Position numbers and translations under genes: made by a program. 32,000 bases of DNA, taken from Synechocystis sp. PCC 6803 substr. PCC-P (lineage in GTDB: Bacteria; Cyanobacteriota; Cyanobacteriia; Cyanobacteriales; Microcystaceae). Below, in pieces: positions 15,793 through 22,226 of the stretch; the first letter of the stretch is position 1, and every line of letters starts with the position of its first letter. The stretch covers positions 1,560,001 through 1,592,000 of the forward strand of contig NC_017039.1 of the NCBI RefSeq assembly GCF_000284455.1. Reading direction: 5' to 3'. Under the pieces are notes generated by a model that ran no database searches, was not told the origin of the DNA, and worked only from the letters and a program-made list of their open reading frames with translations.

Positions 15793-17580
15793 ATGGCTCG
15801 GCTTACTGCTCTATTTCGGACTTACGGGAAATATGCCTTCTTACCGGCGATCGCCTTTGGCTTGGCGGGGGGCATTGCCCTAGGGGTAACCGGGGTAATG
15901 AGTAAGTTATATCTAGGTTTGATGGCCATAGCAGTGATTTTTTTCTTCCTCTGGTGGACCTGGCTTTGGCAAAGATCCCAAGGTTTTCTCGGCCGGCGAT
16001 CGACCCAATCTAGCGCTAACGTGATTGCCTCCACCCTAGCGGTGTTGGCGATTTTAACCCTCATTAACTACATTGCTTTTCGTTATCCTGTCGCCTGGGA
16101 TTTGACCGAAAATCAACGGTTTACCCTCGCCCCCCAAAGTCAGAGCTTAGTGGCAGAGCTGGAACAACCCCTCAAAGTCTGGATTTTCGACGATGCCCCT
16201 AGTGAAAAAGATCGGAGGCTACTGCAAAATTACCAACGTTTCAGTGATCAATTTAGTTTTGAATTTGTGCACCCCGATCGCCGCCCTAAATTGGTACAGG
16301 ACTTTAATGTGCAAAATAAGGGAGATGTATTCATCGAGTATGGCGACAAGAAACAATTAGTTCAAAATCTACTCAGCTTCCAGCAACGGGAAGACCTTTC
16401 TGAAATTCAACTCACCAATGCCATTGCCAAAGCCCAACGCCAGGAAATACCACAGGTTTACCTCGTCCAGGGCCATGGGGAATTGCCCCTCAATAACGAA
16501 CCAAGGGGGATCTCCACCGCAGTGACCGCCCTCGAAAATCTTGGTGTGACAGTCCAACCCCTCAACGTGGTTACCGATGGAGGTATTCCAGAAGATGCCG
16601 ATGCAGTGGTCATTGCCGGGCCGACCCGCAAGTTTTTAGCGCCGGAAATTGCTACTTTAAAACAGTACACCGACCAAGGGGGTAACCTATTAGTGATGGT
16701 ATCCCCGGAAGCTGATGCCGGCTTGGAAGACCTTCTGGAGCCTTGGGGCGTAAGTTTTGATCCCAGACTGGTAATCGATCTTTCCGGAGCTGGTGGTGTG
16801 TTTGGCCTTGACCCCACCGTGCCCATTTTCAATCGTTACGGCAACCATCCCATCACCCAGAAACTCCAAGGGGCGATCGCCATTTTTCCCCTAGTACGCC
16901 CCGTGGCCACCAAGGAACAACCCCATATTCAAGCCACCACCCTAGTGGAAGCTTCGGATTTGATGTATGCCACCCAACTAATCAGTGAAGACCTGCAACC
17001 AAACCCGGAAACGGACTTGTTGGGCCCCTTTGATGTGGCTGTGGCTTTGACCAGGGAAGGGAAAGAAGTCAGTTCAGCCAAGGAAATGGAGACAGGCAAT
17101 AATACTGAACCCGAAGAAATTAACCCCTCCCCTAGTCCCCCAGTTTCCCCCAGTCCTAGTCCCACCGGCAATGGCACCAATCAACCAGAGGCAATGCCAG
17201 AAAATGACAGCAATCAAGCTGGCGATCGGGAAGAATCACCGGCCGGTGAAAACGAAGACAGTGGCAATGATCAGGCCCAAACAGCTCAACAAAATGGCGA
17301 CCCAGAGCTTCCCCCTGCCAAGATGGTGGTGGTGGGTAGTGCTGCCTTTGCCACCAATGCGTGGTTTAACGAAGCTGTCAACGGTGATATTTTTCTCAAC
17401 AGTGTGCAATGGTTAGCAGAAAACGTTGACCAACCCCTTAATGTGCGGGCCAAAGACCCCACCGATCGCCGTATTAATCTAGGAGTGCGACGAGCTACGG
17501 TTTTAGGGTGGTTAACCTGGGTGATTGTCCCCCTAATCGGCCTAGGGCTAGCGGTGTTTACCTGGTGGCGACAAAGGTAA
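15793..17580 (+). CDS. GldG-like ABC-transporter auxiliary component (N- and C-terminal TM anchors)
   Basis: N-terminal TM helices, a large exported domain of GldG/ABC_transp_aux type (RFTLAPQS...VWIFDD...VVIAGP...FLNSVQWL) and a C-terminal TM helix (VLGWLTWVIVPLIGLGLAVFTWW). The family assignment is from memory of domain patterns. Confidence 0.7.
   Translation: MARLTALFRTYGKYAFLPAIAFGLAGGIALGVTGVMSKLYLGLMAIAVIFFFLWWTWLWQRSQGFLGRRSTQSSANVIASTLAVLAILTLINYIAFRYPVAWDLTENQRFTLAPQSQSLVAELEQPLKVWIFDDAPSEKDRRLLQNYQRFSDQFSFEFVHPDRRPKLVQDFNVQNKGDVFIEYGDKKQLVQNLLSFQQREDLSEIQLTNAIAKAQRQEIPQVYLVQGHGELPLNNEPRGISTAVTALENLGVTVQPLNVVTDGGIPEDADAVVIAGPTRKFLAPEIATLKQYTDQGGNLLVMVSPEADAGLEDLLEPWGVSFDPRLVIDLSGAGGVFGLDPTVPIFNRYGNHPITQKLQGAIAIFPLVRPVATKEQPHIQATTLVEASDLMYATQLISEDLQPNPETDLLGPFDVAVALTREGKEVSSAKEMETGNNTEPEEINPSPSPPVSPSPSPTGNGTNQPEAMPENDSNQAGDREESPAGENEDSGNDQAQTAQQNGDPELPPAKMVVVGSAAFATNAWFNEAVNGDIFLNSVQWLAENVDQPLNVRAKDPTDRRINLGVRRATVLGWLTWVIVPLIGLGLAVFTWWRQR
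16873..16880. repeat. HIP1 octamer (last copy before the 3.2-kb HIP1-free stretch)
   Basis: Exact GCGATCGC. Confidence 0.95.
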
Positions 17581-17752
17581 GGGTAATTAGAATTTTTTTA
17601 AAAAGTACCCCCGGAACCCCAAGTTTGGAGAAGAATCGGATTAAATTCTCCCGATATTGCCCAATCTTTAATGGGTCAATTCTGGTGAACAAATGATGCC
17701 AATAGGTCCTTAAAACCTCTTGAATACAAGGTTTTGAACACCATGGGAGCCC

Positions 17753-18271
17753 TTAATATTCCACCAGGGAAATAATTGGTAAATCCGGTAAACATTGACG
17801 GCCATTGAGGGCCGCAAGCTCAATGATAAAAGCAAAACCTAACACCTCACAGCCAAGCTTAGTTAACAATTCAGCAGTGGCCTTGGCGGTTCCCCCCGTA
17901 GCGATTAAGTCGTCCACAATTAACACCCGATGGTGGGGAGCTACCGCATCCTGATGGATTTCTAAAGAGTCTTTACCGTACTCTAAATCATACTCAACTC
18001 GGTGGACTGGGGCTGGTAATTTGCCTGGTTTTCGTACAGGGATAAAACCGGCATTCATTTGATAGGCAAGGGGCATGCCAAATAAAAACCCCCGGGATTC
18101 CATGCCCACCACATGGTCCGGCACAAGTTCCTGGCTTTCACATTGTTCCACCAGGGAGTCGATGGTGTAGCGCAGTCCCTCCGGACTATTGAGCAGGGTG
18201 GTTATATCCCTAAACATAATGCCTGGCTTGGGGAAGTCCGGTATATCCCGAATTAAAGCTTTTAAATCCAT
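17753..18271 (-). CDS. apt: Adenine phosphoribosyltransferase
   Basis: [19 protein letters not shown] and the PRPP loop [14 protein letters not shown]; 172 aa. Confidence 0.95.
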
Positions 18272-18484
18272 AATGCGATGGTTTAAGGTCGTTACGGCAA
18301 CAGGTTCAGGCTACAGTGTACCTTTAACTGATGATTAGCGATAAATTCCCAACTCTACGGATAGGTGAGCGGTGGGGTACAGGGGAATTCTCTACAAGCA
18401 TTATGCTGTGACGTTGCTAGATATCAGTAAACGTGTTTATCTCAACCACCCTTAATGAAGTTATTTCCCCTCCATTTACTGATG

Positions 18485-18520
18485 CCCTTACACTTGCAAT
18501 AGGCTGTAAGGGTTTGTTCT
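18485..18520 (+). terminator. Terminator-like hairpin (8-bp stem plus T-tract) with no plus-strand gene to terminate
   Basis: CCCTTACA (18485..18492) pairs with TGTAAGGG (18505..18512) over a 12-nt loop and is followed by TTTGTTCT. Its 3' arm overlaps the left direct repeat of the islet. Confidence 0.35.
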
Positions 18521-18527
18521 ACGGAAA
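18510..18527. repeat. Left direct repeat flanking the AT-rich islet
   Basis: GGGTTTGTTCTACGGAAA; compare 19939..19954, GGGTTTGTTACGGAAA (identical apart from a CT indel). Confidence 0.7.
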
Positions 18528-18651
18528 TAGTGCTATCTTAAGTAAATTCTCTAGCACCATAAGTAAAAACACTATGGGGTGAAGTATTAAACGGTTTAGG
18601 TTTTGCCATAGTCTAACCAAAAACGCCGTAGTTACAATAACTAAATTAAAT

Positions 18652-19566
18652 TCATATTTTTCGTGATTCTAATATAAATTCAATTAGTTTATCTCTATCC
18701 CAAAGCTCCACTTTATTTCTGTATGCTAACTCTTTAGCATTTTCGGTATAACTATTATTAGTTACAACAATAGCAATATCAGCATCATAATATCCCTTAG
18801 CACCAAGAATTTCTTGAATAGCTTTTACACTAACAGCACTGGCACTTCTCTTTGCCTGAATAACATATTTTTTACGATCTTTCATCAAAATTAGATCAGC
18901 ACCAAAATCTTGAGTTTGTTGAGTCAAAGATCCCCTGTAGCCCATCCTAGTAAAATGCGTTAGTAATACTTTTTCAAAATCAACTCCATCCATTTTATCA
19001 ATACTATCCATACCGGACTCAATAAGTTTTTGCTGTTCTTTGCATTCTTTTTTTAAGTCTAAAGTATCATATAAAAATATGATATGAGAATTAATATAAT
19101 TGGACGATTCTTCCCATTTTTTCATTTTATTTCTTTTTTCATTATTTTCCTCTTTCATTTCTTTACAAATTCTTGTGTCATAATAATGATCTTCTATTAA
19201 TCTTGATTGGCTATCTACTGTTTCCCAAACAGAATAAATAGTTTTTGATTGCTCAATATATTTTTCTATATGTTCTATATCTTCTTCTAAATTTTTTGTA
19301 TTTTTTCTGTCTTCACTCAAAATATTTTTGCTGACTTGATTCCATTCCTGGCTTATTCTCTCTTTTTCAAAAACTAACATTTCTCCGTATCTTTCAACAG
19401 CATCCCATATTGCTTTAGCTTCAGTATTTCTAGCTTCCCTTTTTTTCCTTTTTTCTTCTTCCTTTTTTTTATCTTCTTCATCCCAAGCATTTTTAATTTT
19501 ATTAAATCCCCAAACAAATGTAGCAGTAGCACCAGCACCTATTAACCAAGGAAGAACTAATATCAT
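18652..19566 (-). CDS. Membrane-anchored coiled-coil protein with C-terminal Mrr-type (PD-(D/E)xK) restriction-endonuclease domain
   Basis: N-terminal TM helix (MILVLPWLIGAGATATFVWGF), about 170 aa of Lys/Glu-rich predicted coiled coil, then FEKVLLTHFTRMGY...DFGADLILMKDRKKYVIQAKR...VKAIQEILGAKGYYDADIAIVVTNNSYTENAKELA. That pattern matches Mrr_cat (FE..L...GY, D.G.D, QxK, V.E, vvT...FT..A). AGAGGA lies upstream of the ATG. Confidence 0.8.
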   Translation of the reverse strand: MILVLPWLIGAGATATFVWGFNKIKNAWDEEDKKKEEEKRKKREARNTEAKAIWDAVERYGEMLVFEKERISQEWNQVSKNILSEDRKNTKNLEEDIEHIEKYIEQSKTIYSVWETVDSQSRLIEDHYYDTRICKEMKEENNEKRNKMKKWEESSNYINSHIIFLYDTLDLKKECKEQQKLIESGMDSIDKMDGVDFEKVLLTHFTRMGYRGSLTQQTQDFGADLILMKDRKKYVIQAKRSASAVSVKAIQEILGAKGYYDADIAIVVTNNSYTENAKELAYRNKVELWDRDKLIEFILESRKI

Positions 19567-19613
19567 TTACCATTTCCTCTAAACGTATAAATTTATTATG
19601 AAATTAAGGAGAG

Positions 19614-19862
19614 CTAAGCGCTACATAAGTTAATTATTCTATACACACTAGCCTGACTAATCCCCAACTCCCTTGCTACATAAGCTTTAGACCTACCATG
19701 ACGTACAAGAGTTACAACCTGTTCCGGTACACCGTCACTGATAGGTTTTCTAGCCTCATACTTCTCTTCAGCCTTAGCTACCCCTTCACGCTGACGCTCT
19801 AGCATCATCTCTCTTTCAAACTGCCCCACACCACCAAGCAAGGTAATCGTCAATCTTCCCAA
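19614..19862 (-). pseudogene. Serine recombinase (resolvase/invertase) remnant: only the C-terminal third and HTH survive
   Basis: GRLTITLLGGVGQFEREMMLERQREGVAKA...VVTLVRHGRSKAYVARELGISQASVYRIIN matches the E-helix plus HTH of Hin/Tn3-type resolvases. The roughly 100-aa catalytic N-domain (with the Ser nucleophile) is absent. The frame opens with TTG, and an in-frame TAA lies 13 codons upstream (19899..19901). Confidence 0.75.
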
Positions 19863-19938
19863 CTTCTGGTAGTTTGCTAGTAAGTTACAGTGCCAAACTT
19901 AACGGCCAGAATATTTTTTGCATAAAAGCTTTGACCAT

Positions 19939-19954
19939 GGGTTTGTTACGGAAA
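19939..19954. repeat. Right direct repeat flanking the AT-rich islet
   Basis: GGGTTTGTTACGGAAA, 5 nt from the stop codon (19960..19962) of the BASS transporter gene. Confidence 0.7.
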
Positions 19955-19959
19955 AGTTT

Positions 19960-20838
19960 TTATGTAGATTTGAGCCCCCTAAATATTTTGGCTTTCAGTA
20001 AACCAGCAAAAATGCCACTGGTCAAGAACATAACAACGGAATAAATTGCAGCAGGAATGGCCATAATAGGAGCATTTAAAAGAGTTGTGGCAATGGCGAT
20101 CGCCAAAGTGCCGTTTTGGATACCCACTTCAATGGTGATAGATTTTCTTTCAGCAAGCCCTAGCCCCGCCAAGATAGCAATGCCATAACCCAGCCCCATA
20201 GTGAGAAGATTGAGCGTTACAGTTACTCCCCCCACTTGGAGGAAAAAGTCTGCCAAGTTTTCCCGCTCTTTGACTAGAATAGCAACGATAATAATACCAA
20301 GAAAAAATAGGGAAAGCCATTTAACATTTTTCTCCATTACCATGGCAATTTTAGGCAAGAAATGGTAAAAAATCATACCTAAGCTAACCGGAATAATGGT
20401 AATTACGGCAATTTGTAAAACGGTTTTGAGAAAAGGAAGTTGGAGAGCAAATTGTTCCCCCATAAAATAATTTGCCGCCAGATTAACCACCAGGGGAATG
20501 GTGATGATCGTGACCAAACTACTGATGGCAGTTAGGGTAATGGAAAGGGCCACGTTGCCTTTGAGCAAATAGGTAATTACATTGGAAGTGGAGCCACCGG
20601 GACAGGCGGCCAAAATCATTAACCCCACTGCTAACTCTGGGGACAAAGAAAACAAAGATGATAGCCCGAATCCCACCATGGGCAACATAACTAATTGGGC
20701 GATTAAACCAATTGCAACGGCTTTGGGTTCTAGCCAAATGCGATTAAAGTCTTTAATGGTAAGCCCAAGCCCCATGCCAAACATAATCAAAAAAAGAGCC
20801 AAGGGCAAGAAAATAGTTGTTAAAAAATTGGACTCCAT
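19960..20838 (-). CDS. Bile acid:Na+ symporter (BASS/SBF) family transporter
   Basis: A polytopic membrane protein with FGMGLGLTIKDF, LVMLPMVGFGL, ILAACPGGSTSNVITYL and EVGIQNGTLAI, the characteristic SBF-family motifs. Confidence 0.88.
   Translation of the reverse strand: MESNFLTTIFLPLALFLIMFGMGLGLTIKDFNRIWLEPKAVAIGLIAQLVMLPMVGFGLSSLFSLSPELAVGLMILAACPGGSTSNVITYLLKGNVALSITLTAISSLVTIITIPLVVNLAANYFMGEQFALQLPFLKTVLQIAVITIIPVSLGMIFYHFLPKIAMVMEKNVKWLSLFFLGIIIVAILVKERENLADFFLQVGGVTVTLNLLTMGLGYGIAILAGLGLAERKSITIEVGIQNGTLAIAIATTLLNAPIMAIPAAIYSVVMFLTSGIFAGLLKAKIFRGLKST
20096..20103. repeat. HIP1 octamer (first copy after the HIP1-free stretch)
   Basis: Exact GCGATCGC inside the BASS gene. Confidence 0.95.
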
Positions 20839-20918
20839 GGGAGCAAATGATAAAAATTAATTTGATTTGAAATGGAAGTGTTGAATGATATTTGAAATAA
20901 AATCAAAAACTCTTTAAA

Positions 20919-20948
20919 ATTGTAAAATGCGGGGTAAATTCTTTGCAA
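20919..20948 (-). promoter_or_regulatory. Candidate sigma70-type promoter for the BASS gene
   Basis: On the minus strand, TTGCAA (20943..20948), an 18-nt spacer, then TACAAT (20919..20924), about 80 nt upstream of the ATG. Pattern match only. Confidence 0.25.
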
Positions 20949-21233
20949 ATAAACAAAGTGAGTGTATCATAATTTTGCTAAATTGCGAAAGAGCATTTGT
21001 TTTGTCTACCTGAAAATGGCCACCCAAAATTAGACATATTTTAAGACGTATCTAAGTTTATGCACATCTGGTTAGGATTGGTCCTAGACTAGAGTCAGAT
21101 GAAAACGGCAAATGTATTGAAAAGACTTAACTTGCAGGGAGTAACGTCCCAACAGGTGTTTTATGGAGTAAATTTCCCAGCAATTTGGTAAAATTCAGCC
21201 CCGTCAAACTTTGTAACCAACTAGCTATGGCCT

Positions 21234-22226
21234 ATGACAATTAGCACCACAGATACTTCCCTAATTATTTGGCCGGCCATGGGTTGTGGCACCTGGGCTT
21301 GGGGTAACAAATTGCTCTGGGGTTACCAGCCTGCTATGAATGGAGAACTGGAACGGGTGTTTAGGGAATGTGTGGCGGCGGGAATAACTTTTTTTGACAC
21401 TGGAGATTCCTATGGCACCGGCCGACTCCAAGGACAAAGTGAAAAACTGTTGGGGCAATTTTCCCAAGCCTATGAAGGACTAAATCAAGACAAAATTTGC
21501 CTGGCCACCAAATTAGCTCCCTACCCGTGGCGACTCACTCCCCAAGCTATGGTTGGGGCCGGCATGGCTTCCCAGCAACGACTACAGCGACCAATTGATC
21601 TCGTCCAACTCCATTGGTCCACGGCCAACTATGCTCCCTGGCAAGAACAACCTTTGCTCAAGGGTTTAGTCCAACTTTGCCAACGGGGCCACGCTAAGGC
21701 TTTAGGTTTATCCAACTTCGGTCCCAAGCGTCTGCAAAAGGCCTATGACTTTTGTCAGAATGAGGGAGTTAGCATTGTCAGTCTGCAGGTGCAATATTCC
21801 TTGCTTTCCACCGATCCCGTCAGCAAATTAGGCTTGAAGGAACTCTGTGAGCAATTGGGCATCAAATTAATTGCCTATAGTCCCCTGACCCTGGGGCTGT
21901 TGACCGGTAAATATGGTCCCCAAGGACCTTTTCCTCCAGGTATCCGTGGCCTATTGTTCCGGCGACTATTACCCAAAATTCAGCCTCTTTTGGATACTCT
22001 CCAGGCGATCGCCAGGGAGCGGGAAAAAACCATGGCCCAGGTAGCCTTGAACTGGTGTATATGCCAGGGGACTATGCCCATTCCAGGGGCAAAAAACTGC
22101 CAACAGGTACAGGACAATCTGGGAGCGCTGGGTTGGCAACTGGATCGGGGGGAGATGGACGAGTTGAACAATCAGGCAGCGGCCTTACCCCAAACCATGG
22201 TGCAAAACATTTTCCAAAGTCGTTAG
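21234..22226 (+). CDS. Aldo/keto reductase family oxidoreductase
   Basis: GCGTWAWG, FFDTGDSYG, ATKLAP, LVQLHW, LGLSNF and PIPGAKN are AKR signature blocks. Confidence 0.9.
   Translation: MTISTTDTSLIIWPAMGCGTWAWGNKLLWGYQPAMNGELERVFRECVAAGITFFDTGDSYGTGRLQGQSEKLLGQFSQAYEGLNQDKICLATKLAPYPWRLTPQAMVGAGMASQQRLQRPIDLVQLHWSTANYAPWQEQPLLKGLVQLCQRGHAKALGLSNFGPKRLQKAYDFCQNEGVSIVSLQVQYSLLSTDPVSKLGLKELCEQLGIKLIAYSPLTLGLLTGKYGPQGPFPPGIRGLLFRRLLPKIQPLLDTLQAIAREREKTMAQVALNWCICQGTMPIPGAKNCQQVQDNLGALGWQLDRGEMDELNNQAAALPQTMVQNIFQSR

Follow-up and report, generated by a model that had tools for sequence, protein, structure and literature searches.

A 32,000-nucleotide (nt) window of the Synechocystis sp. PCC 6803 chromosome, whose own numbering is used for all positions given here, contains a short AT-rich island between apt and the gene for a BASS-family transporter. 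On the minus strand the gene order is sll1428 (the BASS gene), a recombinase fragment, sll1429 and apt. The window matched the PCC 6803 chromosome records (BA000022.2 at about 1.57-1.59 Mb, and AP012205.1) with 100% identity across 12.9 kb, the BASS and Mrr proteins were residue-exact on these records, and the island was present in the same arrangement in every PCC 6803 substrain contig read. An initial annotation of the sequence had described a 1.4-kb insertion enclosed by 16/18-bp direct repeats and carrying an Mrr-like nuclease gene and a recombinase remnant. These observations were reproduced: the enclosed genes are a 304-amino-acid open reading frame (ORF) with an Mrr_cat domain and an 82-amino-acid fragment, and the repeats, GGGTTTGTTCTACGGAAA at 18510-18527 and GGGTTTGTTACGGAAA at 19939-19954, have a CT indel as their sole difference, with the right copy 5 nt from the BASS stop codon (19960-19962). 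The interpretation placed on them, that of an element with integration scars, was not sustained by comparison with related genomes. In the PCC 6803 clade the locus is probably a small slot of hypervariable content, situated immediately upstream of the apt promoter region, and not a discrete element bounded by such scars.

The relatives compared were CACIAM 05 (CP019225.1, locus L037, about 97% identical), the JGI metagenome contig Ga0498932_0537106 (locus L032, 97.5% identical), the ERZ1793617 relative (ENA, about 90-92% identical), and S. salina with PCC 7338/7339 (about 86-88% identical). In ERZ1793617 the apt and BASS flanks lie on separate contigs, neither of which has the Mrr gene or the recombinase fragment; the apt side is locus L027 (NODE_105), and the BASS side, which is island-free, is represented by loci L033-L035. 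On the apt side homology to PCC 6803 ran unbroken from apt to 18602, through the left repeat and for 75 nt beyond it. On the BASS side it ran from the gene to 19879, through the right repeat and for a further 60 nt, and was followed by a convergent gene of 465 amino acids. Different neighbours are found in S. salina and PCC 7338/7339: a DUF2973 gene, an MFS transporter and pst genes precede apt, and two MscS-type genes follow BASS; homology in these strains ended at 18328 on the apt side and at 19952 on the BASS side. As an outgroup S. salina underestimates the native flanks because it is too distant, and the closer ERZ1793617 relative was needed to place their ends.

Gene order in these relatives showed that apt and BASS are not ancestral neighbours. 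The initial annotation had proposed looking in substrains and close relatives for an empty site, in which apt would stand next to BASS with a single copy of the repeat. No such site was seen in the four island-free lineages sampled (PCC 6714 lies outside this sample): all PCC 6803 substrain contigs carry the island, and the two genes are unlinked in S. salina, PCC 7338/7339 and ERZ1793617. Nor do the repeats form the bounds of the foreign DNA, as had been supposed, since native DNA conserved in the island-free relative runs inward past both copies. Foreign DNA extends from 18603/18611 to 19878, with the left repeat about 76-84 nt and the right repeat 60 nt outside it. Because host homology passes through each copy in the island-free relative, both are ordinary flank DNA of two unlinked loci. 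The suggestion that they are attachment (att) or target-duplication scars is contradicted both by this continuation of host DNA for 60-85 nt inward of each copy and by CACIAM 05, which is without a matching left copy.

Different cargos were found at the same position in the closest relatives. CACIAM 05 has, in order, BASS, the same native 3' flank, the same recombinase relic, an AT-rich ORF of 439 amino acids, and apt. Its homology to PCC 6803 stops at 19636, some 20 nt short of where the recombinase frame ends, and resumes at 18610; a non-homologous, AT-rich segment of 1,518 bp stands in place of the PCC 6803 cargo. The 439-amino-acid ORF (L037:8366-9685) matched no Pfam or NCBIfam family and gave a weak PADLOC match to AbiGi (E=2.2e-4); it may be an abortive-infection-type gene. 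In the ERZ1793617 relative an islet of about 1.65 kb and about 30% G+C content (GC) (L027:6000-7660) reaches the same boundary on the apt side, to within about 10 nt. The far side of this islet is the squalene-hopene cyclase gene (shc), and no relic is present. Its ORFs encode proteins of 181 amino acids with a J-domain, 100 amino acids with a helix-turn-helix, and 216 amino acids with an HNH-like HHLYD...N...H motif, and their PADLOC hits were only weak. The three alleles hold three cargos, namely the Mrr gene in PCC 6803, the 439-amino-acid ORF in CACIAM 05 and the three-ORF islet in ERZ1793617. The foreign DNA of PCC 6803 is made up of two layers, an older relic (19636-19878) and a variable cargo (18611-19635) that has been replaced since the split of PCC 6803 and CACIAM 05.

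The identity of the flanks changes in steps. Between PCC 6803 and CACIAM 05 it is 100% over 18272-18380 and then 77.8% over 18381-18610. Within the latter stretch the three alleles are equidistant (77.8% for PCC 6803 and CACIAM 05, 79.7% for PCC 6803 and L027, 78.5% for CACIAM 05 and L027), and in the segments adjoining it PCC 6803 and CACIAM 05 are much nearer to each other than to the ERZ1793617 relative. On the relic side identity is about 97% and is lost abruptly at about 19640. Exchange by homologous recombination was inferred from these steps. An old relic would have been fused to the native 3' flank of BASS at about 19878, by an illegitimate or rearrangement junction, before PCC 6803 and CACIAM 05 split. 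Cargo would then have been traded between related strains by homologous recombination, with one crossover in the relic at about 19636 and the other upstream of apt at about 18380. Because that second crossover falls at about 18380, the diverged 230-nt flank would travel with the cargo, and the donor would be another Synechocystis-like chromosome from which the cargo was imported with its diverged piece of flank. This imported or diverged stretch includes the left repeat. The exchange is likely to have proceeded by natural transformation. Low synteny, and the substitution of a GC-poor cassette of about 40 kb between conserved flanks, have been described for PCC 6803 and PCC 6714 (PMC4060947).

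The recombinase fragment matches the Pfam Resolvase profile at positions 109-142 of 145 only, with 22.3 bits (below the gathering score of 23.3), and HTH_7 with 27.0 bits against a cutoff of 23.8. It starts at about 19878, within the terminal part of the catalytic-domain E-helix, with an in-frame stop just upstream. About 108 N-terminal residues (Resolvase 1-108) are missing, the nucleophilic serine among them, which bears out the loss of the N-terminal domain that had been annotated; the relic cannot be catalytically active. It resembles Tn3/gamma-delta resolvases and Hin/Gin invertases in that it aligns to the end of the E-helix and to HTH_7 and is 45-60% identical to plasmid and metagenome recombinases; unlike them it is without those N-terminal residues, and a search for a cognate site, whether res-like, hix-like or of another kind, identified none. 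A tblastn search of the relic against plasmid recombinases gave 56% identity at best, with alignments beginning at query residues 3-10. No close full-length relative was found in plasmid, metagenome and viral collections, where generic serine recombinases reached at most 60% identity.

The same relic, with an identical truncation junction, is present in CACIAM 05 and L032 at about 97% identity, and since PCC 6803 and CACIAM 05 have the same relic-BASS junction, the relic predates their split. The cargo adjoining the relic differs, which goes against the annotated view of the Mrr gene and the recombinase remnant as one immobilised element. The relic-BASS junction at about 19878 is a breakpoint of illegitimate or rearrangement origin and does not represent an attachment site. 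No RNA gene that could have served as an integration target was detected: an Rfam scan of 17500-21300 gave only a sub-threshold snoRNA match, and in the whole window ARAGORN detected neither a tRNA nor a tmRNA.

The two layers also differ in composition. No kilobase of the window has a lower GC than the Mrr segment, at 29.2% against a window mean of 48.1% (standard deviation 4.3), and the relic, at 46.5%, is host-like. The description of the enclosed DNA as AT-rich is correct for the Mrr segment and does not extend to the relic; the three hand counts on which it drew were exact (23.3%, 35.0% and 58.3%). The HIP1 octamer (GCGATCGC) is absent between the repeats, as had been noted, and the largest HIP1-free gap of the window is 16873-20096 (3.2 kb). 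This gap takes in the island, apt and the 3' end of an ABC-auxiliary gene. At about one HIP1 per kb, the probability of finding none in 1.4 kb is about 0.25, and for that reason the absence of HIP1 is weak evidence alone.

At its N-terminus Sll1429 has a hydrophobic helix, followed by a long charged stretch that is coiled-coil-like; its C-terminal domain is an Mrr_cat nuclease of the PD-(D/E)xK type. The match to Mrr_cat (PF04471) spans profile positions 1-115 of 115 with 106.4 bits (cutoff 21; E=1.2e-30), and an alignment of 8 homologous sequences shows no variation at residues E198, D220, D224 and Q237-A-K239. With this full-length match and its conserved D...QxK catalytic motif, Sll1429 is like Escherichia coli Mrr and the type IV (modification-dependent) restriction endonucleases; it is unlike E. 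coli Mrr in its N-terminus, which is a hydrophobic helix and a long charged region in place of a winged-helix Mrr_N. PADLOC matched the protein to the ZorD nuclease domain (1.1e-21) and to mREase_IV (1.4e-6), and a sequence search of the PDB returned no relative. Only three full-length relatives were found among about 5.8 billion proteins, all of them metagenomic and cyanobacterial, with 79%, 54% and 55% amino acid identity. Their contexts are unrelated (one adjoins hemA, another a cation-efflux gene, and the third is near panB/chlM), and no recombinase was visible beside an Mrr homologue in the contexts examined. At the homologue loci (L019:993-1916, L020:135-1007 and L026:374-747, with 84%, 72% and 79% nucleotide identity) DNA similarity ends within 7 nt of the ORF, which is AT-rich there too.

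The gene is absent from other named Synechocystis, relatives of the Mrr protein were not confirmed in viral and metagenome contigs, and a promoter and terminator scan gave nothing above shuffle expectation. Horizontal acquisition, as first proposed, is supported by the GC of the Mrr segment (29% vs 48%), its strain specificity and the occurrence of its closest homologues in three unrelated cyanobacterial contexts. A search against plasmids and phages had been recommended in the initial annotation. A distant-mode blastn of 18300-19960 against PLSDB and INPHARED returned only a 65-nt recombinase match to a Methylobacterium plasmid and nothing from phages, and no donor replicon was identified from these plasmid and phage collections. 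SLL1429 is reportedly the subject of a functional paper, Gu et al. 2025 (Microbiol Res 296:128123, doi 10.1016/j.micres.2025.128123), known here by its title. That title appears in the reference lists of PMC13099982 and PMC12915332 and indicates that sll1429 is already known and studied. Based upon the domain, the conserved catalytic motif and the wording of the title, Sll1429 is most likely a type-IV-restriction-like nuclease with a putative anti-phage or DNA-damage role.

The history of the two repeats was followed in the relatives. In minus-strand orientation the left site reads TTTCCGTAGAACAAACCC in PCC 6803, TCTCTACAAAGAAGACCC in CACIAM 05 and TCTCCATAAAAAAGACCC in the ERZ1793617 relative (L027); the right site reads TTTCCGTAACAAACCC in both PCC 6803 and CACIAM 05, TTTTTTGTAACAAACCT in L032 and TTCTTTGTAGCAAACCC in the ERZ1793617 relative (L033-L035). 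CACIAM 05 has an identical right copy and a left site unlike it, and the right copy of L032 differs from that of PCC 6803 at 3 of 16 positions. The 16/18 match is confined to PCC 6803, with an older similarity put at about 12/16; the exact 16-mer occurs only at the BASS flank across all loci fetched, and no third copy was found in the window. A 14-nt insertion in the BASS 3' flank of L032 (L032:1029-1046) makes a perfect palindrome, GCATAAAAGCTTTTATGC, that is not in PCC 6803 and might be a terminator hairpin variant.

The expected frequency of such repeats was estimated from block-wise dinucleotide shuffles of the window, counting pairs with at least 16 matched bases and one gap of up to 2 nt that lay 200-4000 nt apart. 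Shuffled windows held a mean of 0.99 pairs of this quality, and 63% held at least one; the real window has four. Two of these four best gapped pairs (2441/5843 and 15126/15438) are HIP1-centred. The repeat itself is unremarkable and its position is unusual. An ungapped repeat search, which missed the 16/18 pair because of the CT indel, revealed nothing else convincing at the true edges of the cargo. We conclude that the two copies probably represent coincidental similarity between two native non-coding flanks, arisen only in the PCC 6803 allele.

Several observations weigh against the reading of the locus as a slot with coincidental repeats. In 0 of 200 shuffles was the Mrr ORF flanked by a comparable pair with a copy no more than 400 nt from each of its ends, which leaves some slight unease about pure coincidence. 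Of the five substitutions by which the left copy of PCC 6803 departs from the L027 state, four go towards the right copy; this direction is partly a matter of selection bias, the site having been picked for its match. The proposed exchange was deduced from identity steps in three alleles only, for which no donor was identified, and PCC 6714 was left out of the relatives compared. Support for a defence role of the other cargos is weak (AbiGi at E=2.2e-4, and the HNH motif by eye only), and the SLL1429 paper is known by title only.

Four other explanations were weighed against this evidence. It is extremely improbable that the island is a 1.4-kb mobile element in the BASS 3' flank, with repeats that are att or target-site-duplication scars and with a recombinase whose N-terminal domain was lost, immobilising the element. 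A recombinase fragment is present, and the repeats exist and bracket an AT-rich gene as no shuffled window did. These points are set against the conserved host DNA inward of both repeats (about 75 nt on the left, 60 nt on the right) and against flanks that are unlinked in four island-free lineages. CACIAM 05 has the flanks and the relic without a matching left copy, the right copy of L032 has diverged, and the relic and the Mrr cargo differ both in GC (46% vs 29%) and in history. To our knowledge small serine recombinases of the resolvase/invertase type make no target duplications, which also counts against scars. The similarity of the repeats could instead be other than chance, either through short-patch ectopic gene conversion or through a shared functional motif such as a protein-binding site, and the rarity of their placement in shuffles would suit this, as would the substitutions in the left copy that lead towards the right, conserved one. 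We consider it very unlikely all the same. An ancestral similarity of about 12/16 is too low to seed conversion, the direction of substitution is not independent evidence at a site selected for its match, the entire 230-nt stretch is about 22% diverged, and the 16-mer recurs neither elsewhere in the window nor, in exact form, away from the BASS flank in the fetched loci.

An unlikely, though conceivable, history would make the recombinase and its downstream cargo parts of a once modular element; cargos would have come with intact copies, and recombination in the 3' part of the gene would have kept the resident truncated 5' end. In both PCC 6803 and CACIAM 05 no more than about 20 nt separate the start of the variable segment from the natural 3' end of the recombinase frame, and relic and cargo are adjacent and co-oriented. 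The other crossover, however, needs homology to chromosomal 18381-18610, and because this homology lies upstream of apt the donor looks like a related chromosome and not a free element. No recombinase stands beside any Mrr homologue examined, the best relative of the relic in plasmid, metagenome and viral collections is 60% identical with no close full-length one, and the L027 islet abuts the same apt boundary without a relic. There is also a slim chance that solitary AT-rich nuclease ORFs of the sll1429 type move as ORF-only, self-spreading units, like free-standing homing-endonuclease genes, and that selfish nuclease or abortive-infection genes repeatedly occupy the apt-upstream slot as a favoured place to land. 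In favour of this reading, DNA similarity to the three other cyanobacterial contexts ends within 7 nt of the ORF, and one boundary is common to three unrelated cargos, of which two are nuclease-like.

Defence hotspots have been described in other bacteria. The hypervariable slot proposed here is like these and like strain-variable islets such as the cassette in PMC4060947, in that different low-GC cargos occupy one position between conserved flanks in closely related strains. The cargos may be of defence type (the Mrr nuclease, the weakly AbiGi-like ORF and the HNH-like ORF), and the pattern of flank identity fits exchange by homologous recombination. Unlike known islets, the slot is very small, with one gene per allele, and one of its flanks is a recombinase pseudogene; its far side (BASS, or shc in L027) is not conserved in the genus, and only the apt side is common to all three alleles. 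Direct repeats that bracket foreign DNA containing a recombinase fragment recall att-bounded islands and transposons with target-site duplications. The repeats here do not abut the foreign DNA; they belong to the host, at two loci that were ancestrally unlinked, and another carrier has not kept them. There is neither an empty site nor a potentially active recombinase. An att- or duplication-bounded element was rejected on every count tested (abutment, empty site, repeat conservation, active recombinase). The single-ORF, promoter-poor cargo swapped at a fixed position is reminiscent of integron cassettes. An integron cassette was likewise rejected, there being no IntI tyrosine integrase among the neighbours and no attC-like palindrome or notable inverted repeat at the cargo ends; the flanks carry the signature of homologous recombination.

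Table 1. Positions of the genes and segments at the apt-BASS locus of PCC 6803, with the basis for each assignment.
Feature	Positions	Strand	Basis
apt, adenine phosphoribosyltransferase	17753-18271	-	ORF; Pfam Pribosyltran
apt-proximal upstream region, conserved side of the recombination breakpoint	18272-18380		100% identical to CACIAM 05, 88.9% to L027
apt-upstream flank, native, strongly diverged, probably swapped along with the cargo	18381-18610		Identity about 78-80% among three alleles
Left repeat copy GGGTTTGTTCTACGGAAA, native apt-upstream DNA, derived in the PCC 6803 allele	18510-18527		Sequence read; homology to island-free relative
AT-rich variable cargo segment, 1,025 bp, 29.4% GC	18611-19635	-	blastn of window against L037; GC count
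sll1429, 304-amino-acid Mrr_cat protein	18652-19566	-	Pfam PF04471, E=1.2e-30; PADLOC
C-terminal serine recombinase relic (called ORF 19614-19862)	19636-19878	-	Pfam Resolvase 109-142/145 and HTH_7
Native BASS 3' flank	19879-19959		About 90% identical to island-free L033 and L035 as far as 19879
Right repeat copy GGGTTTGTTACGGAAA, native BASS 3'-flank DNA	19939-19954		Sequence read; identical in CACIAM 05
sll1428, BASS/SBF-family transporter	19960-20838	-	ORF; Pfam SBF, E=2.8e-53; stop codon 19960-19962

Two further observations concern the genes on either side. The neighbours of BASS differ on both sides between PCC 6803, S. salina and the ERZ1793617 relative (window 19952-20847 against L001 and L033). 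In S. salina the gene is flanked by an aminotransferase gene and the two MscS genes, and in the ERZ1793617 relative it is followed by the 465-amino-acid ORF, NIL-Fer4 and TopA; DNA homology to S. salina is limited to the BASS ORF plus or minus 9 nt, and local synteny blocks are only a few kb long. In apt, the Logan assembly SRR11267202 of a PCC 6803 substrain has an extra G in a G-run (G6 to G7, L004:8942), by which the gene is called at 133 instead of 172 amino acids. This frameshift is a likely loss of function, and the 133-amino-acid form was seen on 8 contigs. In the same assembly an A is replaced by a G at a position 48 nt upstream of the start codon of apt (L004:8520, window position about 18319).

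What is new here is limited to the description of the slot and its breakpoints. A caution for similar cases is that a 16/18-nt direct repeat around an AT-rich gene can be coincidence, and that what has to be checked is whether homology to the host ends at the repeat. For users of PCC 6803, sll1429 would be a gene in a strain-specific, exchangeable slot beside a dead recombinase fragment, and the locus would not be a mobile element able to excise. The locus would offer a small natural case of gene-cassette replacement, with base-level breakpoints, in a naturally transformable cyanobacterium, and the position upstream of apt is a candidate variable site in new Synechocystis genomes.

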